DNA from: an uncultured bacterium
Lineage (GTDB): Bacteria; Zixibacteria; MSB-5A5; CAIYYT01
Length of the DNA: 64,000 nt
NCBI GenBank assembly: GCA_963726455.1
Contig: CAVSCK010000003.1
Location: 416,001-480,000, forward strand
Direction of reading: 5' to 3'
Part shown: positions 9,376 to 64,000 of the stretch, piece after piece
How the letters are laid out: each line of letters opens with the position of its first letter
How positions within the stretch are numbered: the stretch's first letter is position 1
The notes under the pieces: generated by a model
Seen by the model: the letters and a program-made list of their open reading frames with translations, nothing else
Database searches by the model: none
Told to the model about the DNA's origin: nothing
Position numbers and translations under genes: made by a program

Positions 9376-11073
9376 ATGCCTAATTCCAAAGAACTAGGGA
9401 CCATGCTGGTCGAAGCCGGCAAAATCAGCAACGAGCAGCTGACGCAGGCCCTTACCTTGATGGACAAAAACAAGGGTCGCCTCGAGCAGATCCTTGTTAC
9501 GATGGGCGCGGTTACCGATGAAGAGGAAATTACCACTTTCATCGGCAAGCAGCTCAATATCGGCGCGATCCGTCTGTCTGACCTGGAACTTAATGCTGAC
9601 GTAGTCAAACTCATTCCGCATGACATCGCTCGCAAGTTCAACGTTATATCTGTCAGCAAATTCGGCAAGACGCTGGTGGTGGCCATCAGCGACCCGAACA
9701 ACATCTATGTCCTCGATGCGATAAAATTCATCACCGGCTGCGTTGTGCAACCGGTGATCTCGCCCGAGCCGGCAATTCAGAAAGCCATCGAGCACTATTA
9801 CAACGAATCGTCGCAGTATTCGGAAATCCTGCGCGGCCTCGAAGAGTCGGAACTCGAGGTCATTTCCACCAGCGATGACGCGGTCAATGAGCTCGAATTA
9901 CAGTCGGCGGTGCAGGACAAGCCGCTGGTCAAGCTGGTGGACTCGATTATCAGCGAGGCAATCCGCAAGGGGGCCTCGGATATTCATATCGAGACCTACG
10001 AGAAGAAGATTCGCGTTCGCTATCGTATCGACGGTTCGCTGCAGGAAATGGCGCCGTTGCCGTTCAAGTATCGCGCGGCGATTGTCAGCCGCGTAAAGAT
10101 CATGGCCGACCTGGATATTTCCGAGCGGCGTCTGCCACAGGACGGGCGCATCAAGATCAAAGTCGGCGATCGCGCGGTTGATCTGCGCGTATCAGTGCTG
10201 CCGACAATCTTCGGGGAAAAGGTCGTGATGCGTATTCTTGACCCGAAGTCACTGATGCACGACCTGACCAATCTCGGTTTCCCGGAGTGGTCACTCAAGC
10301 AATTTCAACGCGCCATCACTCTCCCCTACGGGATTGTGCTGGTCACCGGTCCGACCGGTTCAGGAAAGACCACGACGCTGTATTCGGCGCTCAAGACGAT
10401 CAATCAGCCGGATGTCAACATCATGACGGCCGAAGATCCCGTCGAGTTCAACTTCGAAGGCATCAATCAGGTGGCGGTGCGTTCGGATATCGGGCTGACG
10501 TTCGCCGCCGCGCTGCGGTCGTTCTTGCGCCAGGACCCGGATATCATCATGGTCGGTGAGATTCGTGACGGCGAGACCGCCGAAATTGCGATCCGCGCAT
10601 CACTGACGGGACACCTGGTATTCAGCACCTTGCATACGAACGATGCTCCGTCATCGATCAACCGCCTGATCGACATGGGAATCCCAAGTTACCTGGTGGC
10701 GTCGGCGTCCAAGCTAATCATGGCGCAACGTATGGTGCGCAAGATCTGCAAGCGCTGTAAAGAAGAAGTCAAAGTCGAGGAAGAAATTCTGGTAAGTCTG
10801 GGAGTCCCGGAAGCAGAGCTAAAGACCTTCAAGGCCTATCAGGGCAAGGGCTGTTCCGACTGCAACAATATCGGATTTTCCGGACGAACGGGTTTGTTCG
10901 AAGTCATGCCGGTCACACCGGAAATCGAAAAGCTCATTATAGCCAATGTGCCGACACCGGAGATCACGGCTCAGGCCGTTAAGGAAGGTATGATGACGCT
11001 GCGCGTGGCCGGAGTAGACAAGGTCCGTAAAGGCATAACCACTGTCGAAGAAGTTATCGCGGAGACATCGTAG
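9376..11073 (+). CDS. pilB: Type IV pilus assembly ATPase PilB
   Basis: MshEN-like N-terminus, GASDIHIE, RLPQDGRI, GPTGSGKTTTLY, tetra-Cys motif. Confidence 0.95.
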   Translation: MPNSKELGTMLVEAGKISNEQLTQALTLMDKNKGRLEQILVTMGAVTDEEEITTFIGKQLNIGAIRLSDLELNADVVKLIPHDIARKFNVISVSKFGKTLVVAISDPNNIYVLDAIKFITGCVVQPVISPEPAIQKAIEHYYNESSQYSEILRGLEESELEVISTSDDAVNELELQSAVQDKPLVKLVDSIISEAIRKGASDIHIETYEKKIRVRYRIDGSLQEMAPLPFKYRAAIVSRVKIMADLDISERRLPQDGRIKIKVGDRAVDLRVSVLPTIFGEKVVMRILDPKSLMHDLTNLGFPEWSLKQFQRAITLPYGIVLVTGPTGSGKTTTLYSALKTINQPDVNIMTAEDPVEFNFEGINQVAVRSDIGLTFAAALRSFLRQDPDIIMVGEIRDGETAEIAIRASLTGHLVFSTLHTNDAPSSINRLIDMGIPSYLVASASKLIMAQRMVRKICKRCKEEVKVEEEILVSLGVPEAELKTFKAYQGKGCSDCNNIGFSGRTGLFEVMPVTPEIEKLIIANVPTPEITAQAVKEGMMTLRVAGVDKVRKGITTVEEVIAETS

Positions 11074-11130
11074 CGGCAAGGCCGCTGCATTTGATGGTGA
11101 AAATTATACTCGAATGTACTGGAGCAATAA

Positions 11131-12213
11131 ATGGTAAACCTGCGTGAACTTCTGGAAATTCTGATCGAGAAGAACGCCTCCGATCTGCATCTCGCAGTCG
11201 GCTCGCCGCCACAGATCAGAGTCGACGGTCGTTTAACGACTCTCGATATGGATGCGCTTACGCCTGAAGCCACCAAGAAACTGGCATACAGCATGATGTC
11301 CGAGAAGCAAAAACAGCGTTTTGAAGAATGTTCGGAACTGGACATGTCATTCGGCATCGAGAACATGAGCCGTTTCCGCTGCAACGTTTTTATGCAGCGC
11401 GGCAATATCTCGGTGGCATTGCGGCAGATTCCCTACAAAGTGCCGACGTTCGAGGAATTAGGCATCGACAAGGCGATCGTGGAAATGGCCAATCTGCCGC
11501 GTGGACTGGTGCTTGTCACCGGCCCGACCGGCTCGGGCAAATCCACCACGCTGGCGGCTTTGATCGATAAGGTCAATCGGGAACGGCACGCGCACATTCT
11601 CACGGTTGAGGATCCTATCGAGTACCTGCACCGGCATCAAAACTGCCTGATCAATCAGCGCGAAGTTGGCGCCGACACCAAGTCATTTGCCACGGCGCTG
11701 AAATACGCGTTGCGGCAGGACCCCGACGTGGTTCTGGTGGGCGAGATGAGAGACCTGGAAACAGTTTCCGAGGCATTGAATATTTCGGAAACCGGCCATC
11801 TGACATTCGCCACGTTGCACACCAACTCCTGCGCTGAAACGATCAATCGTATCGTCGACGTCTTCCCTACCAACCAGCAGGAACAGGTGCGGGTAACGTT
11901 GTCGTTCGTGTTGCAGGGCGTCGTGTCGCAGCAATTGGTGCCGAAGATCGGCGGCGGCAGATCGCTGGCCACCGAAGTGATGATCTGTACTCCAGCCGTC
12001 CGTGCCCTGGTTCGTGACGACAAGATTCACCAGATATATAGCATGATTCAGTCAGGCCAGAAGTATGGCATGAGGACAATGAATATGTCCCTTGCCGACC
12101 TCTACCTGTCGCGGAAAATCACGATCGGCGAGGCGATGGCGCGCTCCTCGAACGTGCAGGAGTTGAACGAGATGCTGTCGCGGGTTCAGGCCACGGCGGA
12201 AGCCCGCTACTAG
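11131..12213 (+). CDS. pilT: Type IV pilus retraction ATPase PilT
   Basis: ASDLHL, GPTGSGKSTTLAA, ALRQDPDV and AVRALVRDDKIHQI (AIRNLIRE-type) motifs. Confidence 0.95.
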   Translation: MVNLRELLEILIEKNASDLHLAVGSPPQIRVDGRLTTLDMDALTPEATKKLAYSMMSEKQKQRFEECSELDMSFGIENMSRFRCNVFMQRGNISVALRQIPYKVPTFEELGIDKAIVEMANLPRGLVLVTGPTGSGKSTTLAALIDKVNRERHAHILTVEDPIEYLHRHQNCLINQREVGADTKSFATALKYALRQDPDVVLVGEMRDLETVSEALNISETGHLTFATLHTNSCAETINRIVDVFPTNQQEQVRVTLSFVLQGVVSQQLVPKIGGGRSLATEVMICTPAVRALVRDDKIHQIYSMIQSGQKYGMRTMNMSLADLYLSRKITIGEAMARSSNVQELNEMLSRVQATAEARY

Positions 12214-51846: not shown

Positions 51847-52422
51847 CTATTCTGCGGGCTGCTCTGATTCTGTCAATACCTTCCAGGTTTTCGAAGATTG
51901 CAGCCGCTGGATTTCCTGATCGCGTTGGCCATCATCAAACTTCAGGAAAGCATTGTCATTGGCATAGCGTTCATCCTCACTTTCCTCAAGCGACAACAAC
52001 CGCCGAAGCATCAAATAGGCCTCGTCGCATACGCGACGATGCGGAGGTCTCTGATCGGACGACGTGAAGGCGGCTGCCGAGTCGGACTCACGCGTGTCTG
52101 AAAGCATTTTCTCCAAGGTTCCAGTCAGGCGGGCGCGATTCGCAAGGTGAACGACGAGCGCGGCCCTAACGTCCCAAACGTAATCTTCCGGAGGATCATT
52201 CTGCAATGAATCCAGCAACGGGTCGGCGGTGAGTGTACTCAAACGGAGTAACACTGCAGAGGCGGTAGCTCGGGTGTTGTTATCATCGGCGTGGGCAAGC
52301 CGCACAACTTCCCTGGGCTCTTTGAGTGACTTGTCTTTGATCGCGGTCGCCAGACTGTCGATCGACTGTTCGTCGTTCGGCTGTGTCTGCATTATGGTTT
52401 CGCTGACGGTTCGGTACGGCAT
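51847..52422 (-). CDS. Hypothetical helical (HEAT-like) protein; candidate immunity/partner protein
   Basis: RBS GAGGTG; helical repeats and RVCDEAY motif; directly follows a putative effector. Confidence 0.55.
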   Translation of the reverse strand: MPYRTVSETIMQTQPNDEQSIDSLATAIKDKSLKEPREVVRLAHADDNNTRATASAVLLRLSTLTADPLLDSLQNDPPEDYVWDVRAALVVHLANRARLTGTLEKMLSDTRESDSAAAFTSSDQRPPHRRVCDEAYLMLRRLLSLEESEDERYANDNAFLKFDDGQRDQEIQRLQSSKTWKVLTESEQPAE

Positions 52423-52437
52423 GTATTCACCTCTGAC

Positions 52438-53602
52438 TCAATATATTTCGTAGCCCAATCGATTTGCATTCAACTGGATGTTGGTGCGCCGCTTGGCTTC
52501 CTGAAGACTTTTCCACCACGATTCATTGGCGTTCTCTTTAGGAAATTTCATCCAGTTAGTCAGCCACATGGCCGCTGTATCTCCAACGGAGAAGTTCGTT
52601 GTGAAGTAGGCGAATCGGTCCGTGGGGGGATCGTCACGTTTCCAGCCCTTGTAGGCGTCGCGCCTGATGACCTCCCAATAGTGGAGGCGAGAACTGCACC
52701 CGAAATGACAGAATACTCTGCACTTGAAGTCGAGCGCACCGAGATCGAAGGGATCGTTCACGGTGCTGACCCAATCGGCGTAGACGACAATGTTGTCAAG
52801 GCCGCCAAGCTTGAGGCCATAGTATTGATTGTTGTCAGATTCGTAATAAGGGGCAACCTGTCCGGTCAAATCGTCGGGAAGAGTGATCTTGCCGACCTGG
52901 CGCCTGATGTCGGGATGACGATATGCCATTTCGGGCAGACCGTCGGCGGCAGCGACGGGACGAAACTGGTAGCCGTGGTGTTCGATGTCCTTCAATTCAA
53001 CCGGCAGCACGGGATAGCCGAGGCGAAACAATCCGTTGTCGTTTGTCGTACCGTCTTCCCACTGTTCGCCCTGAGGGGTAAATTCACCGCTATACTGATC
53101 GAAGCAGGCGCCGCGGCCATAGCGTGAGTGTCCCTCGTAGATGACCTGGATGCCTTCGGTTTCCAACGCGGCTTTGAACTCGGACTTCGTGCGCACGGCC
53201 TTCACTTTGAAATACACCAATTGCGCATCGCAGACGTATTCACCTTCGTCATCCGAAAGTCGCGTGTAGCCATCGACGTGTTGTTCGAGATATTCCTGAA
53301 GTGGTGTTTCTATACTTTTGCGTAGTCCGCGCGCAATACCTTTAAGAACGGCTGGAGTTCTTTGAAATGGCGCCAGGCCCCGGCCAAATTGCTTTTCCAA
53401 CTCCTGCGAAACCTGTTCGACTTGTTCGGGCGTCGGGTCGTTTTCCAGCGTGTCCGCCCATCTCTTGATTTTGACGGCGCGGGCGCGCTTGTCGCTATCG
53501 TGGAATTCGATGCCTTGAGCGACGATGACATCGCGCTCTTCGTAGCCATCGACAAAACATGCCAAGCTCACCGGTGCCGGTCGGTGTGCCGTTTGCGCCC
53601 AT
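52438..53602 (-). CDS. Hypothetical protein, candidate clan CD (caspase/gingipain-fold) cysteine peptidase; likely true ATG at 53602 with a +1 frameshift near 53580
   Basis: VIYEGHSRYG and FCHFGCSS strand-His / strand-Cys motifs; TAGATG coupling to the upstream gene. Confidence 0.5.
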
Positions 53603-54496
53603 CTACTTCTCCAACATTACGCCCTTGGCATGGTGAAACTTGATTACACACTTCCCCGGAGGAAGACTCTCTAACTTCGCGTAACCATTCTGATCGAGTT
53701 GCCCCTGTTGAGTCGTGCCGTCAGGCAGCTCTACTGTATACTGCTCGTTGGCGCCAACCTGGCCTTTGCGATCACGAAGGGTGATCTCGATCGAGTCGCA
53801 AAACACCACAAAGCCCGATTCCTGTCTTCGGCCGAATTCCTGATTGTCGATTTTGACTGTGAAGAAGTATTTCGGAGATGCGTACTTGCGGCCATAGCGC
53901 TGCAAATCCGATTGGGTGGGTATTTCCTCGGTATTGTCCGGGTAATCAAATGCCCACTCGAGGGCGACCTTCTTGTTCTCGACTGTAGCTGCAATCTCGG
54001 CGATTTTATCATGGGCGCCGTCGGCGTCAAATTCGTAGACGATGGTTTTCACCGCGGCGGAGCCGGGAACATTCTCGATTTTCGCATTCAGAGTCAGGAC
54101 ATCGCCCCGGTGAACTTCTTGAGCACTCCAATGCATATCGGTCACCAGAATTGGCGGAACGACAGCGACTGAGTTCGATTTAGCGCTTAAGCCATTCTTC
54201 GGCAATTGGACGTCGAAGTAGACCAACTCTCCTGTCTTGACATCGGGAGGAATCGCAAATGCGCCGATAAATTTGTTTCCGCGAATCTTGCCGGTAACTT
54301 TGCCGAGACTCTTCCCCTTGCTGCTCTTGCCCTTGACTTCAACCGGAGCGCCTTGACCGACAAAAAGGGTGCCGATTTCGAAAAACGCCTGCTGGCCCGC
54401 CGGAGCATATGACTGCTGCCATTCGGCATAAACGAGCATTGATGACAGCGTCAGTTTCTCCTTGCTGTCGGTAGCTTTTGTGAATTTGAGAGCCAT
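53603..54496 (-). CDS. Adaptor-like beta-sandwich protein with C-terminal transthyretin/carboxypeptidase-regulatory-like domain (paralog A)
   Basis: C-terminal ANEQYTVELPDGTTQQGQLDQNGYAKLESLPPGKCVIKF; colinear with 58868..59899. Confidence 0.65.
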   Translation of the reverse strand: MALKFTKATDSKEKLTLSSMLVYAEWQQSYAPAGQQAFFEIGTLFVGQGAPVEVKGKSSKGKSLGKVTGKIRGNKFIGAFAIPPDVKTGELVYFDVQLPKNGLSAKSNSVAVVPPILVTDMHWSAQEVHRGDVLTLNAKIENVPGSAAVKTIVYEFDADGAHDKIAEIAATVENKKVALEWAFDYPDNTEEIPTQSDLQRYGRKYASPKYFFTVKIDNQEFGRRQESGFVVFCDSIEITLRDRKGQVGANEQYTVELPDGTTQQGQLDQNGYAKLESLPPGKCVIKFHHAKGVMLEK

Positions 54497-54759
54497 GTAT
54501 ACACCCCCAGGATTTGCCTGGTTATGACCACCCCTTACGGGGAGTTGCCAACATTCTTGTGAGTGATACGAAGGCAGAGATTCTTTGAAGTGACCTAAAT
54601 TGGTCCAGGATCATGTCGGCAGCGGATTTGTAGCCCGCGACATCAGATAGGCGGACCGGCCTGAATCCGCAAAAGCGGGTGAATTCGGCGGGAATATTCC
54701 GCCGGCCAGCTTGTAATTCTGGCAGAGTATTCATTTCCATGACTGAACAGGAGGAGATT

Positions 54760-56411
54760 ATGAAGCACCTCATAGCTGTAATGGCGATGGTTGCGCTGAT
54801 AGTCGCGCAGGCCACGGGGGCGCCACAGCCCGTCAAATCCGAGATCAAGAAGGTAACCGTCTTCCCCGACCGGGCACAGGTATCGAGAGTGGCATCGGCC
54901 AATCTCGACCAAGGAGAGCGACAGCTTGTCTTCGAGGATTTGCCGCTGGAGGCGGACGACGCGTCATTTCACGCAGTTGTCCATGGTGACGACGGTATCC
55001 TGTTTCTGGGACTGACACACAAAGTCGTTCAGCACTTGGAATCTCGCCAGACCCGGATAGCTGAGGTTGAGAAGAAGATCGCTGATATCGAAAAGAATCA
55101 GCGCGAACCAGCCAATCACCGGCAAAACATCTTCTGGCAAGAAAGGGAACTACTTCTCGCTTTGGGCAAGGCAGGCGGCGAACAGATGAACGGCCAGATG
55201 AAGGGTGGCGCGATGGATGTTAAGAGCTGGGAATCCGCATACAATTTCTTCAGTCGGGAATTCGCTGCGATAAGTGATTCACTGCGTTTAGTAGGGCAGA
55301 TCAAGGCCGAAGCGGACACACAGCTCACCCTACTCAAGAATGAATTGCAGGAGATTCGCGGTAGCGGCAGCCGCAATACCAAGACCATTCAGGTGGATTT
55401 GCAGCTGGCGAAAGCGGGAGCCGTGGATGTGACGTTGGACTATGTCGTACCGAACGCCGTCTGGGTGCCAATATATGATGCGCGCCTGAACGCCGACGAA
55501 CAGGTTGACCTCAGCTATTCCGCAGATGTTCAGCAGCGAACGGGTGAAGACTGGAATGACGTTAATCTGACACTGTCGACGGCCAGACCGGCGGAAGGGA
55601 TTACACCGGGAGACATTTCTCCCTGGGTGTTGGTCATTTTCCGACCGGCAATGGAGACGATGAATTTCGGCAGCATTCAGGCGTTGCGGACGAAGAGTTG
55701 CTATTGATGGCACTCAAATTAGGGATCCGTTGGGAATGAGAGGCGGCAGGGATTCGGAAATGGCAAAGCCGATGCTGGCGCAGGTAACTCAGAATCTGGC
55801 TGCCGTCTCGACCTGCTATGTCATTCAGCGCAAGATGACGATTCTCTCGGGTAGGGAAGCCGCACGGGTACCGATCGGGCAATGGACACTGAAGGGAGAC
55901 ATGAAATTGGTTTGTCGTCCACGAAACCATGAAGGTGTCTTTCGGTTTGCGACTTTGACAAATCAAGAGGAAACGCCCTTGCTGCCGGGACCGGTGAATA
56001 TCTTCGCCGGTAACGAATTTCTGGGCACAACCATATTTCGGGACTTGATCGCAGTAAGCCAGAGTTTCGAATTGCCGTTCGGACCGGATAATCGAATCAC
56101 CGTAAAGCGGGAGATTTTATCGCGCAAGACTACCGTCGGAGACGATAATGAAACGCGGCAGGAGACGGTTGCGATCACGCTTACGAATCACGGCAAGGAC
56201 AGCCGTATTGTTACGCTGGAGGAATCATTGCCGACTTCAACCGATAGCCGCATAAAGATCAAGATGGGAGATGTTGTGCCGGAGCCTCGAGTCCAAAGAC
56301 GTCAAAGGAAAGGCATCGTGGTCGTTGACGCTGGCGCCGGGTTCGGAGACAACCGTTCAGATTCCGTACAAGATTGAATTTCCGGTCGGGATGCTCGTGT
56401 CAGGATTCTAG
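54760..56411 (+). CDS. DUF4139/DUF4140 (MuiA-like) exported protein, +1 frameshifts near 55690 and 56287
   Basis: Signal peptide, IKKVTVFPDRAQVSR, WVPIYDARL, QRTGEDWNDVNLTLSTARP and PLLPGPVNIF; C-terminal WSLTLAPG...YKIEFP in a third frame. Confidence 0.85.
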
Positions 56412-56442
56412 GTGCGTTGGCTCAGTATCGGTCGCGGATAAT

Positions 56443-56470
56443 GAAGGGAAGGAGCGCACTCCTTCCCTTC
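56443..56470. terminator. Hairpin between convergent genes, probable bidirectional terminator
   Basis: GAAGGGAAGGAG-CGCA-CTCCTTCCCTTC, a perfect 12-bp stem. Confidence 0.7.
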
Positions 56471-56480
56471 GCATTTCAAC

Positions 56481-58871
56481 TCAGCCGCGAACGCCCCAGG
56501 AGGGCATGTCGGCCCATTCGTCGGATTCGAAGTCGTAGTCACGGTCAACGTTGATCATGATGTTAGCGTGTTCGACAAGCTGTTCCAGATGAAAGGCCAG
56601 TCCATCGTGCGGGACGGTGAATTCTGAGTGGCCAAATGGCTGACAATTGAGCCATGCCTGTCCGGTAGTGATGCCGTCCTCGAGTCTGAGGTTTATCTCA
56701 ATCTCGTAACTATCTCCGGATGTCCGAACACAGAAATTGGCCGAAATTACGGCGCGTCCGCTTACCGAGGGGACGGTAAAATCACGGTAATGCTCGGTAT
56801 TCCGGGACGGAAACTGAAGTGTGAATTTTGTACGAAAAGTGGCGCCATTGGCATTTCCGAACTCGCAGCGAAAGACAAACTTGGCCGCGTCGGGCAGGAA
56901 CTTGGTGGTAATTTTGATCTCGCACACACGCGTGACCGTGTCGAACATGTGGCAAACCGTGTACTTGTGGCAGCAATTGATCAGTGAGTTGAGCTGCATC
57001 TTGAGTCCCGCATCGTCGGCGCGCCAGGCCTCGTAACGTCCGTCAGCCCACGGCGCCTGACTGCCTTCACCCGGAGTCTTGCCCCACATACATCGAGCGG
57101 CGAAGATTTCCAGATCACTATCCGAGCAGGCCATCACAATTACGGCGCCGGCAGCGGAAATCAGACCAATGACGGCGCCGGCTGGACCGCCGACGCTGCC
57201 GCCATATGCCATGCAGTAGAGCACCAAGCTTAACTCGGCGATGCCCGCACCCACGACGATGGCATTTCCGACCATCGCGTCATAGTCATCCATCCGCCAG
57301 CGATCAGCAGCTCCGCTGCTGCTGCCATAAATGTCGAAGATGTTCTTTACGACCATGGCCTTCATGGCCAAGCCGGTCGCGCCTCTCAGCATAGCCAGAT
57401 TGGCGAGACTGTCGAAAACGTTGGTGATGCGACCAGCATTGACGTCGCCGTCGAGAATTCCCTTTAGTTCCCCGAGACCGCTGGCAATTCGATAGATGCT
57501 GGCAACCTTCACCAATTTCTGCTCGATATCGCTCGTGCGTCCGACTGCCCTAATGTAGCGGCTGGCGGTGTCGCGTATTTCCGTCAGTTCGTCCAGGTAA
57601 TCTCTAAAACCGGACGGACGCCCGACATAATATTTCAGGAGAGCATATGTTGCTACCGTGAAAACTGACGCGATCATTTCCGCAGCGTCAACCTGGCTGA
57701 ACGAGGTTTTCCAGGCAGCGGCCAGAGCAGTATCCTGATTGGTCCCTCTTCCCAATGAGGCCTTGTAGAAAGCAGCCCAGGCATTCTCGCCGGTGTTTTC
57801 TTCCGCGAGTTCGGATAAGTAGTCGGACAATAGTGCGTGATCGCCGGCGATGCTGGTCACGGGAAGCATAATCTGCAGCCAAACCTTGCCATCAAGACGC
57901 AAGCCGTCTTCCTCGTAAATCATGAATTGCTTCTGGAGGTCCTTCATGATCGGACGTGTTAACATATTGTACAGGTTGTCGATCAGAAAGGCCTTGCGAG
58001 TCGCATAGTCGGCGTAGCGGTTGAAATCAGAATCAAGACGTCCCATCTCAAAATCATCGGCGACAGAGCTGTCCTGGTCGGCAAGTTGCTTGCAGAGACA
58101 GGCGAGGATTCCCTTGTAGCGAAGCCGCCTTTCTGCGGTGCTGAGGCGCGGCATGGAAACTCGCGCGTCAACAATCGACGCCAATCGCGAATAGACGCCT
58201 GCGGCATCTACCGTGTGCTCGATAACATAGCCGGGATCAAACACAATCAGACGACCTTCTCCGGGTCCCTGGTCGTTTTCGCGATTGAGCAATCGCAAAC
58301 GACTAAATCTTAGGAAATCGGAAAGTGCACCGTAGGAGCCGGAGAAGATCATATCGGCGGTCTTCGCATTGATTTGGCCGGGCAGCGCAATTGCATAGCA
58401 GTCCGGCAAATCGGCGCGCAGCAGACTGAACAAACTGTTGTCGGAACCTACGCTACGCACCGGCTCGAAATCGCCATCGCCGTTGCGGGTGAACTCGGTC
58501 GAATCCCAGTTGGTGATCCCTCTGTATTCGATTTCCCAGAGCGTCTCACGAGGCTGACAATAGATGTAGACCCAGCGGCCGGTCGCTTCCGATGTTAACG
58601 GGCGAAAGAGCGCGGGAATGTCGACAACGTGATCGTCGTGGAAGAGCGCCAGGAGATTATCCTGATTTTCTACATAGAAGAAGGGCCCACCGGAACCACC
58701 AAGTATCCGCGCAATGAAAGCAAGAACACCCTGGCCGAGATTGCTGCCTAATCGCTCATAGACCACATAGTTGAAGCGTGACAAGACCACCTGGACACGA
58801 TTGGACAGACGGTTTTGCTGGTAGCTTCCCGTAGCGACCTGATGGGTTGAATCCTGATTTCCACCGCTCAT
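56481..58871 (-). CDS. Candidate MIX-like/VasX-like pore-forming effector
   Basis: N-terminal GRWVYIY...LWEIEY; Gly/Ala-rich hydrophobic hairpin followed by DSDLEIFAARCMWGK; no signal peptide. Confidence 0.55.
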   Translation of the reverse strand: MSGGNQDSTHQVATGSYQQNRLSNRVQVVLSRFNYVVYERLGSNLGQGVLAFIARILGGSGGPFFYVENQDNLLALFHDDHVVDIPALFRPLTSEATGRWVYIYCQPRETLWEIEYRGITNWDSTEFTRNGDGDFEPVRSVGSDNSLFSLLRADLPDCYAIALPGQINAKTADMIFSGSYGALSDFLRFSRLRLLNRENDQGPGEGRLIVFDPGYVIEHTVDAAGVYSRLASIVDARVSMPRLSTAERRLRYKGILACLCKQLADQDSSVADDFEMGRLDSDFNRYADYATRKAFLIDNLYNMLTRPIMKDLQKQFMIYEEDGLRLDGKVWLQIMLPVTSIAGDHALLSDYLSELAEENTGENAWAAFYKASLGRGTNQDTALAAAWKTSFSQVDAAEMIASVFTVATYALLKYYVGRPSGFRDYLDELTEIRDTASRYIRAVGRTSDIEQKLVKVASIYRIASGLGELKGILDGDVNAGRITNVFDSLANLAMLRGATGLAMKAMVVKNIFDIYGSSSGAADRWRMDDYDAMVGNAIVVGAGIAELSLVLYCMAYGGSVGGPAGAVIGLISAAGAVIVMACSDSDLEIFAARCMWGKTPGEGSQAPWADGRYEAWRADDAGLKMQLNSLINCCHKYTVCHMFDTVTRVCEIKITTKFLPDAAKFVFRCEFGNANGATFRTKFTLQFPSRNTEHYRDFTVPSVSGRAVISANFCVRTSGDSYEIEINLRLEDGITTGQAWLNCQPFGHSEFTVPHDGLAFHLEQLVEHANIMINVDRDYDFESDEWADMPSWGVRG

Positions 58872-59899
58872 GTGTTCACCGTTGGCGCATCATCAACGTC
58901 TGTCTCCGAGGCGCTTTCAACTTCAGAAGGTTCTTCTATCTGGCTGCTGTCTGCGACATCAAGTTCCGGATCACTCACGGCACTCGTATCGTTGATGCCC
59001 GTATGCTCTTCCTGATTCACTGCCGGCAAGGCGCCCGGGTAGGTTATCGTCACCTCGCCGGGAGGAATATCCTCCAGCCGTACCCTGCCGTTGTCATCGA
59101 GGTCACCTTCGCGGGTGGTGCCATCGGGAAGCGTGACGACATAATGTTGATTTGGCACCGAGTCATGTTGATCGTCGACCAACTGAATCTCGATCCAATC
59201 CTTGAACAGCAGCAGACCCGATTCCTGCCGTCTGCCGAACTCCTGGTTGTCAACCTTTACGGTGAAGAAGTACTCCGGCGGATTGTAGCTTCTGCCATAC
59301 CGTTGCATTTCCTCGTCGGTGGGGATTTCATCGGTATCTTCGTGATATTCGTAGGCCCACTGCAATTCTATTTTCTTGGAAGTCACAGTTGCCGGCAACT
59401 CGACGATCTTGTCATGGGCGCCGTCCTGATCGTACTCGTAAATGATGACCTTGACCTGTGCTCCTTCGGGAAGGTTCTCAACCGACGCCTTCAACGTAAG
59501 AACTTCACCCCGGCGCGCTTCGGAAGCGCTCCAGGACAAGTCAGATACGATGATCGGCGGAACGGCTGCGACATGATTGGAAGTGGTGCTCAATCCGTTC
59601 TTGGGAAGTTTGACATCGAAAGATACCATGTCGCCTATCTTGGTATCCGAGGGAATCGTAAATTCGCCGATGAACTTATTGGCCCTGACCTTTCCGGTAA
59701 CGGTGCCGAGATTCTTCCCCTTCTTGCTTTTTCCCTTGGCCTGGACCGGCGCGCCCTGCCCGACAAAGATCGTTCCGATCTCAAATGATGCCTTCTGGCC
59801 AACACAGGCGTAGGATTGTTGCCACTCCGCATAGACGATGGAAGCCGTGAGCGTGACTTTCTCTTTGGCATCGGTGGATTTGGTGAATCTCAGTGGCAT
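58868..59899 (-). CDS. Adaptor-like beta-sandwich protein with transthyretin-like domain and acidic tail (paralog B)
   Basis: WIEIQLVDDQHDSVPNQHYVVTLPDGTTREGDLDDNGRVRLEDIPPGEVTITYP; paralog of 53603..54496. Confidence 0.65.
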   Translation of the reverse strand: MPLRFTKSTDAKEKVTLTASIVYAEWQQSYACVGQKASFEIGTIFVGQGAPVQAKGKSKKGKNLGTVTGKVRANKFIGEFTIPSDTKIGDMVSFDVKLPKNGLSTTSNHVAAVPPIIVSDLSWSASEARRGEVLTLKASVENLPEGAQVKVIIYEYDQDGAHDKIVELPATVTSKKIELQWAYEYHEDTDEIPTDEEMQRYGRSYNPPEYFFTVKVDNQEFGRRQESGLLLFKDWIEIQLVDDQHDSVPNQHYVVTLPDGTTREGDLDDNGRVRLEDIPPGEVTITYPGALPAVNQEEHTGINDTSAVSDPELDVADSSQIEEPSEVESASETDVDDAPTVNT

Positions 59900-59919
59900 G
59901 ACAATACCCTGCGCTCGTG

Positions 59920-60345
59920 CTAAGTTTCCAGAGTGAAGTTTTCGATCATGCGATCTACTTCGATACCGATCGTCTTGAAAGTTTGTTTCGTGAAGTTGGC
60001 GGTGAACGTGTAGCCGCGATCACCAACGATCACGTAGACATGTTTCTTGAACACCGCTTTGCCGTCGCCGAGGACCATCTTATAGACCCATTCGTAGGCC
60101 TTGACACCGGTTGCGAAAGTGCGCTCTTCTTCTTTCAGGGTTTCGATCCCTGCCATCGAGTCTTTGATCGGCTGCATTCTGTCGAGAGCAAATTCCTTGA
60201 GATCATTGTCTGCCAGATTACGGTCAACGACGAGGTTCAGAATGTGCCGGTACCCATTCACCTCAGGGCCCATGAAGATGTACGCGGTTTGGTCCTCCCA
60301 GCCATCGGGCAACCGCAAGAGAAATCGGGAATTTGTTCCTGCCAT
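59920..60345 (-). CDS. DcrB/DUF1795 (Mog1p/PsbP-fold, Eag-type adaptor) family protein
   Basis: LRLPDGWEDQT N-terminus, ~140 aa, GYTFTANF...MIENFTL C-terminus. Confidence 0.7.
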   Translation of the reverse strand: MAGTNSRFLLRLPDGWEDQTAYIFMGPEVNGYRHILNLVVDRNLADNDLKEFALDRMQPIKDSMAGIETLKEEERTFATGVKAYEWVYKMVLGDGKAVFKKHVYVIVGDRGYTFTANFTKQTFKTIGIEVDRMIENFTLET

Positions 60346-60378
60346 TCGCAGCTCACTTTCTATCTACGGCTGATTGTT

Positions 60379-61697
60379 CTAATGGGCCGTCGTTATCTCG
60401 TAGAGTCCGGCAGTGGTACCGACTACAAGCGTACCTTTCTTGAGTTCGACCACCGGCGTCGTAATACTGCCCTCAAAACCCATCACGGCGAACCGTTCCT
60501 TGCCGTCGGCAGTGAGTGCAACGATGCGGCTTCCGCCGCTAACCACCAGGCAATCGTTGAACAAGGTTGCATAGATGCCGGCGCTCCGGGTGACACCAAG
60601 AGGATATTGCCAAAGACTTTGTCCCGCTACATCGTAGGCCGCCACGCCTTCCTCACCAACGACGTAGATCTTGCCATCAGTTGCAGCCAACGGCGGGCAG
60701 ATTACTTTACCTACCGCTTTGGGAATGACCGCCTTGAAACGGCTGTGGCCATCGGAGGTGAAAGCGAAAAGCTGGTCGGTATCCCCAACGGCGGCGCTAA
60801 GAAATATTTCGGAGTTCAAGCCCGCTGAGGCAAAGCTCGGAACGAAGTCTCCGACGATCACGCGTTGGACCTTGAGATCGTAGTTTAGCACTACTATCCC
60901 CTTCCTGATTGGCTGGACGATCTGCTCGGTGAGGAACACCGGCACGATGAAGAGATCGTCGAAATAGGCAGCCATCTTTTCCTCGCGAATGTCGCTCAAA
61001 TTGAGACTGCCGGCGGGCGGCAGAACATCCTTGATCTTGAACATGCGCAGGAAGGCGGACTGATCACGACGGTCGGGCATCATTTGATATGTATGACAGC
61101 CGGCGATGATAAATCGGTCGCCAATGACGTTGGCCTCATAGAAATGCAACTGTTGAGCGCCGCTGATTATGATCTCACTCAGTTGCTTTCCGTCGGAATC
61201 GTATTCGCACAGGTCATCCCCCAGCGAGTACAGTTTTCCGTTGCTGACGCTGAGGTAGCTGTCGCGACCCCACCAGCGTTGCTCCCGAATCAGGCGCAAG
61301 CTGTCCCGCTCATAGATGCGAAACACGCCCTGGGATTCGACGATGAGTTTCGGTCCGTTAAGATAGAGCGCTCTGACCTCGGCGTCTCCAACTCTTTTCA
61401 CTAAATAGTCAGCTTCTGAGGGATAGTCAAACTTCTGGTAGCAGTTGCCGTTGCGCAACGGGTTAACAAAGCGACAGGTGAAACCGACCGGCGGAGCCGC
61501 AACGGGCTGAGGTTCAGACGCGGAGGTGGACGGCTGGAGCTCTATTATTGGGAACGACTCAGGGATCACATGCCTTTCGTCACCCACGAACAACCAGTTA
61601 TCATAAATGCGCACGTCCATCTTAGCTCCTTGACATGAGACCAAAGCACTCAAAAAAAAAGAACCCCTAACAGAACCAGTCGCGAATATTTAGGCAA
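60379..61697 (-). CDS. Lipoprotein with PQQ-like beta-propeller C-terminus; signal peptide interrupted at a T9 tract
   Basis: With 10 T the N-terminus reads MPKYSRLVLLGVLFFLSALVSC; repeats such as AFTSDGHSRF, AYDVAGQSLW, ALTADGKERF. Confidence 0.6.
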
Positions 61698-64000
61698 GTT
61701 TCACCGTCCCGTTGGGCACAAAGTCACCGACGGCAAAGTTGGTGGCACTTGGAGTCTGTCCATTGGTCAATCCAACCATCTCTGCGAAATACTTCCAAAA
61801 ATCAGTGGAATCTGCGACAGCCAGGTCCAATTCGCCCGGATCGTCGTCGAAATCATCCCACTCGCTCGTGCCGGAATTGGCGACGTCTATCTCATAATGC
61901 GGTTGCGCCTCTGGCTGCGTCAATATCCAATCCCTCTGGGCATTATATTTTCCGGCCGTGTCAAGTCTGGCGGAATAGGTAGCCGCATATTCGGGCGTAT
62001 AGTTATTCACCAGGTAGCGTGGCTGAAACTGCACCAGGGTCTCCGTATAGGGGGCGTCTCCGCAAATCTTTATGACATTATTATCTGCGAATTGTCTGGT
62101 GATGCCAAGATCGATTTTGCCGAGCGAATCGACAATCTGAGCCATGGTGGCGGAGGCACCGATAAGCGGGTCCCAGTACTGTAGACGCAGGTTGACCTTG
62201 ACGACTAGTAGCGCCGTAAATTTCTTCAGAATTCGTGGCAACGCCTGGCTGTAACGGTCTTCGCCGAGAGGATACAGATAGAGGTTGAATCTTCCCGTGC
62301 CGCTAACCGAGTTTGATCGATTGTTCTCCTGTTTGCTCGGATAATTAAGGTAGTGATCGGCATCGGTACCAACGTCGGCGGGGTCCCAGGTGAGCGTTGG
62401 GTTGAAGGGAAGTTTATAATCAGGAGCGCTCCACTTACTAATAATGAAATCGTACTTCTTGCCGGCTGTTAGTCGAGTTCGCAACCATTCAGCATAGTGC
62501 CAATAATGGCGGGCGCGAATGTAAAGGTTGCTCATCATCATCGAACCGCTGTCGGCATTGTATGGCGCTCCCGGCTTGAAATCCGGAAGCCCCATCATTC
62601 CATAGCAACAGTTGTCCCATTTTTCGTGATAGTCATCGTCCAAACTACTGGCGTGTCCGGTCTCGTGGGCGGCAGTCAACTGAGTTCCGACCCCGGCCCT
62701 GGCGGTCTGATTGGATCTGATCTCGCCTTTGTCCCGGCTCATGAAAGAACGACCGGCAGCGCCGGCAGGATGAACCGAAATGATCGTATGCTGCTGAGGG
62801 AGATCGACGTGCTGAATATAGAATCGGATATTGACACGCTGCTTGGTTAGTTCGTTCGACGCAAAAAGTGAAACCAGCCGGGTGCCGCCGTCTTCGAAGT
62901 CGTTCCAGGCATTCGTTATGTTCTTTAGGGAATCGTCGATCCACGTCGGGGTGACGACGGGACTGGTGGCAACTTTATCCTGAAGGTGCCACCTGAAGTA
63001 ACTGAAGATGTATGAGATTTCCTCGCCGTCCTTGTAGCCTTTTTCGCGAAGAAGATAGCAATCGAAATTCCCTAGCGACCAATTCCAATTAGTCTTGTTC
63101 TCCCGCACGCGGTAGTGTCGTTGTTGAAAGCTCGCAACAAAAGTGCATTTGGTGGCGTGATTGTACACCGCGGCTCGATGGCCCAGACGCTGCCCGGCGG
63201 TAAGGCGGTCTTTGAATGTGGCGTACAACTTGTTCTGCGCGACGACACCGCCGATAGGAGTGCCGAAGAATGGCAGGTAGGATGAAACCATTAATCCCGT
63301 CGTGATTTCGCCGTCGGCCGCCACCGTGCCGGCGATCTTCTCGGTGTAGTAACTTTGATGGTTTGTAGCGTCCGGGTTGATAACGCCGAATTTATCGTCG
63401 AGAACTGCTATGCGCTGCATGACCGGAATGTTCTCCGGCGCGAGATTGGCGGCCGTGAGAACCAGATCATCCAGTGAAAACACGATCGGCTTGGCCGGCT
63501 GCGTAATTCGACCACCAAACGGCTTGAACTTGTCTGCCGCGGGGCTCGCGGAAGTAAACAAGAAGCGGAAGACATACTTCTTGTCCTGATTCTTGGTCAC
63601 GTCGTCAAGGGTGACGCCACCGCCCGCCTGATTTTGAGGCCTGGCGCACCAATCATCGGATATCCATTTTGCCGGAAGATCGTAGTATTTCCATTTTTCT
63701 TCGGCATCGCTCTTATTCGCATCGCGCAAATCTTTCAGGGCTTTCTGCATCTCAGCATCGGTGACTATCTTGCCGGCATCGTCAGCGCTGGATTTGAAGA
63801 TCCACTTGCCCGCCGCTTCAAAGACGAATTGCAGTTTAGATCGGGTCGGATCAGTAAGGCGATTTCCGAAGTTCACCTTGAGACTGTAGACGCCGTCTTT
63901 CCACTTGCACTTGGACGGCAATGGCGCGCCGTCGTTTTCAGAAACCTGAAACTGCAGGCCGTCGGGTGCACTGTCGAGTTTCCCATATTTTAGATGGTAG
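61690..64000 (-). CDS. Large protein (5'-truncated by the window edge) with a zincin metalloprotease domain
   Basis: AAHETGHASSLDDDY plus downstream GSMM (Met-turn-like); reading frame open to position 63999. Confidence 0.65.
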   Translation of the reverse strand, partial: YHLKYGKLDSAPDGLQFQVSENDGAPLPSKCKWKDGVYSLKVNFGNRLTDPTRSKLQFVFEAAGKWIFKSSADDAGKIVTDAEMQKALKDLRDANKSDAEEKWKYYDLPAKWISDDWCARPQNQAGGGVTLDDVTKNQDKKYVFRFLFTSASPAADKFKPFGGRITQPAKPIVFSLDDLVLTAANLAPENIPVMQRIAVLDDKFGVINPDATNHQSYYTEKIAGTVAADGEITTGLMVSSYLPFFGTPIGGVVAQNKLYATFKDRLTAGQRLGHRAAVYNHATKCTFVASFQQRHYRVRENKTNWNWSLGNFDCYLLREKGYKDGEEISYIFSYFRWHLQDKVATSPVVTPTWIDDSLKNITNAWNDFEDGGTRLVSLFASNELTKQRVNIRFYIQHVDLPQQHTIISVHPAGAAGRSFMSRDKGEIRSNQTARAGVGTQLTAAHETGHASSLDDDYHEKWDNCCYGMMGLPDFKPGAPYNADSGSMMMSNLYIRARHYWHYAEWLRTRLTAGKKYDFIISKWSAPDYKLPFNPTLTWDPADVGTDADHYLNYPSKQENNRSNSVSGTGRFNLYLYPLGEDRYSQALPRILKKFTALLVVKVNLRLQYWDPLIGASATMAQIVDSLGKIDLGITRQFADNNVIKICGDAPYTETLVQFQPRYLVNNYTPEYAATYSARLDTAGKYNAQRDWILTQPEAQPHYEIDVANSGTSEWDDFDDDPGELDLAVADSTDFWKYFAEMVGLTNGQTPSATNFAVGDFVPNGTVKLA

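Follow-up and report, generated by a model that had tools for sequence, protein, structure and literature searches.

Introduction

Type VI secretion system (T6SS) proteins in which PAAR or VgrG carries a C-terminal transthyretin-like (TTR) extension are reportedly internal adaptors. Known Eag chaperones shield the N-terminal transmembrane helices of prePAAR effectors. This report concerns an array of minus-strand genes at the end of a 64,000-nucleotide stretch of DNA from an uncultured bacterium of the Zixibacteria (the window; G000:C3:416001-480000). Two of these genes encode paralogous proteins, A and B, each followed by a different gene, and the array had been put forward, in a preliminary description, as an undescribed toxin-loading system for a contractile injection apparatus. 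The present analysis indicates that it is probably the effector-loading part of a Bacteroidota-type (iii-like) T6SS, in which a conserved carrier, made up of two domains (D1 and D2) and a TTR-like domain (TTR in what follows), is reused with many cargo proteins.

At the head of the array lies a gene encoding a PAAR protein with a TTR-type extension, and a cargo gene comes next, as in the internal adaptors. Here, in contrast, the extension has three parts (TTR'-D2-TTR), and its module is also found in a PAAR-less protein with a different head, D1. The loading principle has already been described elsewhere, and the word undescribed had to be dropped. In the accessible part of one report, the Vibrio RIX-TTR protein is a secreted adaptor; according to a prediction, its TTR domain binds the effector at residues 1-25, completing a barrel, and fusions of the module of TTR domain, effector and immunity protein to PAAR or to VgrG occur elsewhere (Kanarek et al. 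2023, PMC10435454). As far as that text goes, the logic would be the same in both systems: a toxin-less protein that ends in a TTR domain is the product of the first gene of an adaptor-effector-immunity operon, and relatives of its N-terminal domain are fused to diverse toxins. The systems differ in that the head is here formed by two beta-sandwich domains without a Pfam model, rather than by the short arginine-rich RIX, in that the T6SS is iii-like and zixibacterial rather than the T6SS-i of Vibrionaceae, and in the Eag-like gene that accompanies the adaptor; furthermore, the present family is known from genes alone.

A second close system is the Bacteroides fragilis GA3 V2 cargo complex BtpeA-BtaeB-BtapC, which has been solved on VgrG (PDB 9JDH, 9JG8; Li et al., Cell Host Microbe 2025, via PMC13699834 and PMC13402684). 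According to the accessible parts of the latter two texts, BtapC mediates the joint secretion of PAAR-fused BtpeA and BtaeB. There was no detectable sequence similarity between BtaeB and the adaptor, and the structural match between them was tied with generic macroglobulin domains. BtaeB comes with a toxin attached; in the present system the N-terminal module stands apart as a protein to which a TTR domain has been added, and the accessory protein is Eag/DUF1795-like rather than BtapC. In the DUF4123 Tap adaptors, the VgrG-binding lobe is conserved and the effector lobe variable, according to the accessible text of Colautti et al. (2024, PMC11582642). Tap proteins, as described there, resemble the present adaptor as conserved accessory proteins beside unrelated effectors, which they tether to the spike; they are of an unrelated fold and family and are not fused to toxins, whereas the adaptor here is conserved almost throughout and only its C-terminal tail varies with the cargo. 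A 2026 review, in its accessible part, restricts T6SS-iii to the Bacteroidota (PMC13584744), and a full-text literature search found no paper dealing with the T6SS in Zixibacteria, only incidental mentions. Novelty lies in the protein family, in its Eag-like partner, in the lineages where the system occurs and in how large the cargo repertoire is.

An adaptor gene followed by a variable cargo slot

Paralogs A and B were 62% identical across 287 aa without a gap (E = 7e-142), far above chance, whereas the products of the genes behind them had no mutual BLAST match at E 1e-6 and fell into separate clusters. These results agreed with the preliminary description, in which the paralogs were colinear and the genes coupled to them unrelated.

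An alignment-based scan of species-representative genomes gave 79 loci, from records labelled Zixibacteria, 'Ignavibacteria', Krumholzibacteriota and GN15 and one Acidoferrum record; a single-protein scan gave no relative. The 1297 proteins encoded by the open reading frames (ORFs) of these loci were clustered (clusters are numbered c1 and upwards, loci L001 and upwards). A recurrent gene order, confirmed by Pfam matches on representative loci, consisted of the PAAR-extension gene, slot 1, the Eag-like gene (c1), the adaptor gene, slot 2 and the genes for ClpV-N, ClpV-C, TssB, TssC, TssD, VgrG and TssE. Stand-alone adaptors numbered 71, in 68 loci, and for 43 of them the locus contained core T6SS genes inside the 10-kb flank. 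The effector module was apart from the core cluster in the window's own taxonomic family, the same-genus genome included.

A gene on the same strand followed the adaptor in 65 of the 71 cases, and the products of these slot-2 genes belonged to 33 protein clusters. As many as 42 of the 65 began within 30 nt of the adaptor stop codon, and 12 overlapped the adaptor gene. Close adaptors were paired with differing cargo in the locus pairs L051/L065, L019/L048, L044/L064 and L079/L080, a tree of 72 adaptors required no fewer than 46 changes of the cargo label, and the two cargo clusters that are represented in the window, c17 and c20, also occurred behind distantly related adaptors. The tabulation of downstream genes thus bore out the earlier claim of swappable cargo, in that near-identical adaptors were followed by different cargo genes.

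The claim that the adaptor stands alone held for the 71 copies just described; many relatives, on the other hand, were fused to toxin domains. A word-based search with the adaptor gave 782 homologues, nearly all of them without a Pfam domain; those that bear a name belong to the Zixibacteria or to the FCB group. An exhaustive HMMER search gave 957 cluster representatives at E ≤ 0.001. In many representatives the adaptor formed the N-terminus and was followed by 100-900 more residues. The C-terminal domains in 34 scanned fusions included phage lysozyme, AHH nuclease, PG_binding_1/OmpA, metallo-beta-lactamase, amidohydrolase and beta-lactamase-like domains. One database protein (P0132) was a fusion of DcrB and the adaptor.

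A Ser/Thr kinase gene was often found in divergent orientation upstream. The divergent set upstream of the PAAR-extension gene comprised genes for this Ser/Thr protein kinase (c12), two proteins without assignment (c13 and c11) and c26, which ends in a T9SS sorting tail, and was seen in L018, L021, L035, L049, L084, L085 and others; it may be a regulatory unit.

Co-occurrence of the adaptor with a Bacteroidota-type T6SS

The genome from which the window comes has 3.64 Mb in 5 contigs and a completeness score of 100%. The classical Pfam models for TssC (PF05943), Hcp (PF05638), TssK (PF05936) and the phage sheath found nothing in it. Searching for VgrG, however, pointed to a cluster at C3:703-718.5 kb, which is separated by 235 kb from the array and has genes for ClpV (two genes), VipA/TssB and VgrG, pieces of TssC (PF17541) and a piece of TssD (PF17642), as well as weak TssF/K-like and baseplate-J matches. 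A 115-aa ORF, itself without a Pfam or NCBIfam match, lay at the position of TssE in the relatives, which had an intact 476-aa TssC (242.7 bits), TssD, VgrG and gp25/TssE. By these profile matches, the genome holds a Bacteroidota-type (subtype iii-like) T6SS. The contractile apparatus that had been postulated was thus found in the organism's own genome, together with a PAAR gene just beyond position 64000 of the window.

ClpV was encoded by two genes in most T6SS loci (N-domain with AAA1, approximately 485 aa, and AAA2, approximately 366 aa; G000:C3:715987-718517; clusters c5/c2; L012-L087), and by a single gene (approximately 840 aa) in a few. Since the split is conserved, it is not an error. 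A second T6SS effector locus of the same genome (G000:C5:30491-34546; L009:6491-10546, minus strand) contained a 123-aa PAAR protein by a 1206-aa fusion of DUF4123 (Tap adaptor) and Rhs, and then a 133-aa ORF.

The phylum was sampled evenly with 151 genomes, of which 79 had a match to TssC (PF17541). The adaptor, at a threshold of E ≤ 1e-20, was present in 76 of these 79, all but G056, G079 and G107, and the 72 genomes with no TssC match were all devoid of it. Within family f2, the presence and absence of TssC and of the adaptor coincided (34 and 32 of 55). These figures are descriptive, since the sampled genomes are related. Matches to the adaptor family mostly numbered two per genome, one adaptor and one PAAR extension; there were three in this genome. 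Since the T6SS co-occurs with the adaptor and the downstream genes vary, neither of the outcomes that had been named beforehand as telling against a toxin-loading role, namely adaptor-bearing genomes devoid of such an apparatus or an invariant non-toxin gene downstream, was encountered.

The near-universal presence of the adaptor in TssC-positive genomes, usually in a single copy, also fits a different explanation, according to which the D1-D2-TTR protein belongs to the spike complex as an indispensable structural component, like BtaeB/Bte3, which the T6SS of B. fragilis requires, and is not a carrier. The neighbouring slot would then be no more than a variable part of the locus, its products being loaded via Hcp, the PAAR extension or direct binding to VgrG. 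The adaptor is 45-50% identical across records labelled Zixibacteria, Ignavibacteria and Krumholzibacteriota, a degree of conservation that is unusual for an adaptor, and its closest solved structure, tied with generic beta-sandwiches, is the N-terminal domain of an effector within a spike cargo complex. Furthermore, deletion of bfe5/bfe7 in B. fragilis abolished T6SS function, according to the accessible part of PMC13402684. This explanation is nevertheless unlikely: the length of the adaptor tail tracks the cargo family, the adaptor has been duplicated here along with a second cargo, adaptor-toxin fusions exist, and the close spacing and overlap of adaptor and cargo genes also argue against it. 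A place in the spike and a role as carrier do not exclude each other.

The adaptor family

The window proteins were scanned against Pfam and NCBIfam, and neither had a model for the adaptor family. Three parts were delimited from the alignment and from hidden Markov model (HMM) matches: D1 (residues 1-115), D2 (116-235) and a small TTR-like domain (236-290). Comparison of D1 by hhalign with D2, with the TTR part and with the N-terminal region of the PAAR protein gave no relation (probabilities below 3%), so D1 is neither a degenerate PAAR domain nor a repeat of D2. The Pfam matches of the TTR part were below threshold (CarboxypepD_reg, 16.1 bits against a cut-off of 32.3; SpaA, 20.1 against 23.1); some relatives passed the CarboxypepD_reg cut-off. 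When the family profile was compared with solved structures, the sole match was a prealbumin-like Bap domain (E = 2e-4).

The AlphaFold2 (AF2) model of the adaptor consisted of three beta-sandwich domains, with a small beta-sandwich at 236-290. Foldseek with this model returned complement and alpha-2-macroglobulin arrays only, at TM ≤ 0.29, and in a structural comparison the top match was the N-terminal domain of BtaeB, tied with generic beta-sandwiches. The beta-sandwich domains that make up the fold are of a common kind, and Foldseek matches that include complement, alpha-2-macroglobulin, intimin and invasin arrays would suit surface or adhesin-type Ig-like proteins that lie near T6SS genes by accident. 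This possibility is close to refuted by the strict co-occurrence with the T6SS, the fixed place in the T6SS locus, the D2-TTR module shared with the PAAR protein, the fusions to toxin domains and an N-terminus that does not resemble a signal peptide. On this last point the preliminary description was upheld: a Kyte-Doolittle scan, with no dedicated signal-peptide predictor used, detected no hydrophobic stretch at the N-terminus of A or B, nor in the 796-aa protein behind B or the 377-aa protein behind A.

On the tree of 72 adaptors, A, B and the adaptors of the two closest genomes formed a clade (SH-aLRT 99), and A and B are therefore lineage-specific paralogs. The C-terminal tails differed according to the cargo. 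All six other adaptors linked to c17 had tails of 37-180 aa, and paralog B, likewise followed by c17, had one of 53 aa; those linked to c20 had tails of 3-12 aa. By eye, the tail of paralog B was homologous to the linker that joins adaptor and AHH nuclease in fusions likewise trailed by c17, and this acidic tail looks like a fusion linker from which the nuclease has been lost. Such fusions were seen in L013, L016 and L029 (adaptor genes at 10001-11413), where they are followed by the 795-aa family of B's partner.

The Eag-like partner

The 141-aa protein encoded upstream of paralog B matched Pfam DcrB/DUF1795 (PF08786) with E = 3.7e-5 and 24.3 bits, under the cut-off of 27.2, whereas a homologue passed the cut-off with 41.2 bits. 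The c1 profile (31 members) matched Pseudomonas aeruginosa EagT6 (6xrf, 1tu1; E = 3.2e-4) and, weakly, SciW. The gene lay directly upstream of the adaptor in 50 of the 71 cases, whatever the cargo. The protein thus resembles the Eag chaperones (EagT6, EagR, SciW) in its profile and in its place in a T6SS effector locus, and differs from them in that its gene is linked to the adaptor regardless of the cargo and in that helices of the prePAAR type are lacking in the PAAR protein and the adaptor.

The PAAR protein and the slot-1 cargo

The PAAR protein matched PF05488 with 80 bits (cut-off 27), with a weak match to NCBIfam T6SS_PAAR_dom. Its C-terminal part matched adaptor family positions 234-290 and then 118-288, and the layout is therefore PAAR, linker, TTR', D2 and TTR. 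By eye, the start is AARxxDxxxH-like and passes into the PAAR domain with nothing in between. The gene just upstream (window-equivalent 66332-66901; L001:3333-3902, minus strand) encodes a protein of 189 aa whose N-terminus is hydrophobic; it had no family match, and proteins of the same size occupy this position in the two closest genomes (L010, L011).

The gene for the 1128-aa protein in slot 1 overlaps the stop of the PAAR gene by 4 nt. A metzincin-type site, HExxHxxGxxD, with a downstream Met was kept in all 27 aligned homologues of this protein; H804, E805, G807, H808, D814 and M847 were at least 95% conserved among the 27, and G811, present in most of them by eye, is S in the window copy. 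There was no Pfam, NCBIfam or PDB sequence match. The conserved site suggests a metzincin-like zinc peptidase. Slot 1 was less variable than slot 2: after 45 PAAR-extension genes it held c8, the cluster of the 1128-aa protein, in 22 (mostly with c9), c18 in six and a dozen others in the rest.

The 424-aa protein encoded next was assigned to c9 by BLAST (33% identity over 424 aa with a 444-aa homologue). A c9 member matched PQQ_2/BamB-like models, and most members began, by eye, with a lipoprotein-type signal. From its position, it is a candidate immunity protein for the 1128-aa cargo. Its earlier designation as a lipoprotein was borne out in part. The homologues carry lipoprotein signals and the window copy has the lipobox LVSC; however, the only start codon upstream is a TTG six residues ahead of the Cys, and no canonical start lies far enough upstream. 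The ORF shares the frame of the 1128-aa gene and begins right past the single stop codon of the latter (window 61653-61700, minus strand), and the signal ...GSFFLSALVSC would require a non-canonical start or read-through.

The slot-2 cargo

The gene for the 796-aa protein behind paralog B (c17) is translationally coupled to that of the paralog through their 4-nt overlap. The protein has a pair of neighbouring helices, hydrophobic and rich in glycine, at 532-556 and 560-585. Its region 511-609 matched the T6SS effector family NF041559 (BTH_I2691) weakly, with 19.9 bits against a cut-off of 150, which places it outside that family. To judge from the helices, the protein is probably membrane-active. 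A word-based search with it gave two relatives only. Cluster c17 was found behind the adaptor in six other loci, in three of which (L050, L058, L065) clpV came next with no intervening ORF of at least 60 aa; in the window, unlike in these three, a convergent gene comes after c17.

The 377-aa protein behind paralog A (c20), which had been described as having approximately 388 aa, measures 377 aa from its GTG start. Its family had no match among solved structures by sequence, and Foldseek with the model of the 377-aa protein came back empty; it is possibly a caspase-like (clan CD) cysteine peptidase. The predicted complex of paralog A with this cargo, run without controls, had a score of 0.00, which counts neither for nor against binding. 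The 191-aa protein encoded next (c37), whose cluster also followed c20 in three of the five other c20 loci, has no hydrophobic N-terminus and no Pfam or NCBIfam match. Its position makes it a candidate cytoplasmic immunity protein for c20.

Among 44 other slot-2 representatives, Pfam matches were obtained to PAD, Metallophos (beside a pentapeptide-repeat protein), Zn phospholipase C, PG_binding with Amidase_2, and LysM. The cargo types behind the homologues thus include peptidoglycan amidase, phospholipase C, arginine deiminase and phosphoesterase domains.

Gene row of the window

In window positions 51847-64000 the minus strand held eight ORFs, all of them open and in the order previously described, from the HExxH protein to the 191-aa protein. 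Their coordinates are given below together with those of the adjoining features.

Table. Coordinates of the array genes and adjoining features (window positions unless stated otherwise).
Feature	Position	Strand	Remarks
PAAR-extension gene, 358 aa	window-equivalent 65073-66149 (G000:C3:481073-482149)	-	PF05488; array head, just past the window end
HExxH protein gene (c8)	61690..64000, continuing to window 65076	-	1128 aa; window holds the 3' two thirds; slot-1 cargo
Beta-propeller protein (c9), 424 aa	60379..61653	-	probable lipoprotein; may confer immunity to the metzincin-like cargo
DUF1795/Eag-like protein (c1), 141 aa	59920..60345	-	conserved partner of the adaptor
Paralog B, 343 aa	58868..59899	-	adaptor D1-D2-TTR with 53-aa acidic C-terminal tail
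796-aa cargo (c17)	56481..58871	-	4-nt overlap with paralog B
MuiA-family gene (DUF4140/DUF4139), two ORFs	54679..55707 and 55730..56377	+	TIGR02231 and Pfam matches
Paralog A, 297 aa	53603..54496	-	minimal adaptor: D1 1-115, D2 116-235, TTR 236-290
377-aa cargo (c20), GTG start	52438..53571	-	possibly caspase-like (clan CD) cysteine peptidase
191-aa protein (c37)	51847..52422	-	candidate cytoplasmic immunity protein for c20

The previous account of the gene row passed over the plus-strand MuiA-family gene, which separates the two adaptor modules, is convergent with the 796-aa gene and lies outside the system. The start of its product resembles a signal peptide. TIGR02231 positions 1-281 were matched in the first of its two ORFs and positions 308-494 in the second, and the split suggests a frameshift. 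Comparison of the array surroundings with the same-genus genome (70-76% identity, with compensated gaps) showed the two to be too diverged for a judgement on assembly errors.

Discussion

The analysis shows that the parts are homologous to one another's counterparts in the related loci, that their gene order is shared, that they occur together with the T6SS, that the content of the cargo slot varies and that carrier-toxin fusions exist. The mechanism proposed on this basis has two platforms. The PAAR tip, with its TTR'-D2-TTR extension, would cap VgrG and carry the product of the next gene, here the putative 1128-aa peptidase, which is followed by its candidate immunity protein. The PAAR-less D1-D2-TTR carrier, encoded after the Eag-like protein, would in turn carry the product of the gene next to it. 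In this genome the carrier appears twice, and B would load the 796-aa protein with its predicted transmembrane hairpin, while A would load the 377-aa, possibly caspase-like protein, which is accompanied by the 191-aa candidate immunity protein. The D2-TTR module may be the cargo platform. By analogy with RIX-TTR/Rte1, an N-terminal strand of the cargo may dock on the TTR domain, and D1, together with the Eag-like protein, may attach the carrier to the VgrG spike, as the N-terminal domain of BtaeB would suggest (9JG8). The downstream proteins would be toxins.

The cargo N-termini offered a candidate loading signal. In many unrelated slot-2 proteins, 'SG' precedes a stretch near residues 5-25 that is basic and alternating, and the pattern SG.{1,6}[RK] occurred in the first 40 residues in 20 of the 28 slot-2 cargo clusters, compared to nine of 194 background clusters. 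Because the pattern had been picked after inspection of the data, 80 metagenome loci were fetched as a replication set. They contained 53 downstream genes, 43 of which were homologous to the first set, and nine new clusters. When the pattern was loosened after inspection, it was present in five of the nine new clusters and in 32 of 282 background clusters. The motif followed the TTR domain in five of 24 adaptor-toxin fusions, with no sign of its retention under covalent attachment. As a loading signal the SG motif is a lead, not a result.

Several observations weigh against the proposed role of the array. The SG pattern, as set beforehand, was found in two of the nine new clusters compared to 26 of 282 background clusters (p = 0.21) and was thus not replicated. 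It was present in only two of 11 slot-1 cargo proteins, though these lie behind the same D2-TTR module, a lack that also favours the view of the adaptor as a structural piece of the spike. Approximately 30 of the 44 slot-2 representatives had no Pfam match, so that most of the cargo is without a recognisable toxin domain, and in several loci c17 lacked an adjacent immunity gene. In a hydrophobicity scan, the PAAR protein and both paralogs lacked any hydrophobic segment, in which they are unlike the prePAAR clients of Eag chaperones. Lastly, compared to the same-genus genome (86% nucleotide identity), five single-base insertions were present in tssC and one in tssD (G000:C3:713559-715497; L008:1560-3498); if they are real, the apparatus is dead in this strain.

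These insertions, none of which lies in a homopolymer and each of which shifts the frame by +1, may be assembly errors or real decay. In the latter case the array would be a relic in this strain: with the sheath and tube genes broken, nothing would be fired, and the effector genes, still intact, would be heading for decay. This is a matter of function here and not of gene identity. Such decay is a tangible possibility, albeit the less probable of the two. The TssC match was free of internal stops in the 78 other genomes that had one, and the frame was open over its full length in 77 of them. On the other hand, all eight array genes, clpV, vgrG and the baseplate genes are open, the broken tssC reads as a conserved protein in every frame piece, and the muiA-like gene of the same 5-contig assembly has a one-base frameshift, which fits local consensus errors.

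With these points taken into account, reuse of the D1-D2-TTR carrier with many cargo proteins by the T6SS is still regarded as the probable function of the array. A bolder version is considerably more doubtful. It holds that D1-D2-TTR is a general cargo-loading code of a T6SS-iii branch that is common beyond the classical Bacteroidota (in Zixibacteria, Krumholzibacteriota and lineages labelled Ignavibacteria), that unrelated toxins are recognised by the N-terminal SG motif, whose basic beta-strand completes the TTR barrel, and that a chaperone of the Eag type has taken on a new task, keeping a soluble carrier attached to the spike rather than covering transmembrane helices. If this reading were true, the gene behind every adaptor would be a predictable toxin, with 33 families in 65 slots, most of them without a known domain.

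About half of the sampled genomes of the phylum (79 of 151) carry this T6SS, together with a conserved carrier family that had not been annotated. The two described systems, the RIX-TTR tethers and the Bacteroides BtaeB spike complex, would here be linked in one protein, and a near-invariant adaptor that would load unrelated cargo provides a natural test case. The carrier marks a slot with dozens of uncharacterised families and thus offers a practical handle in the search for further antibacterial toxins, and for proteins of immunity to them, among uncultured bacteria of sediments.

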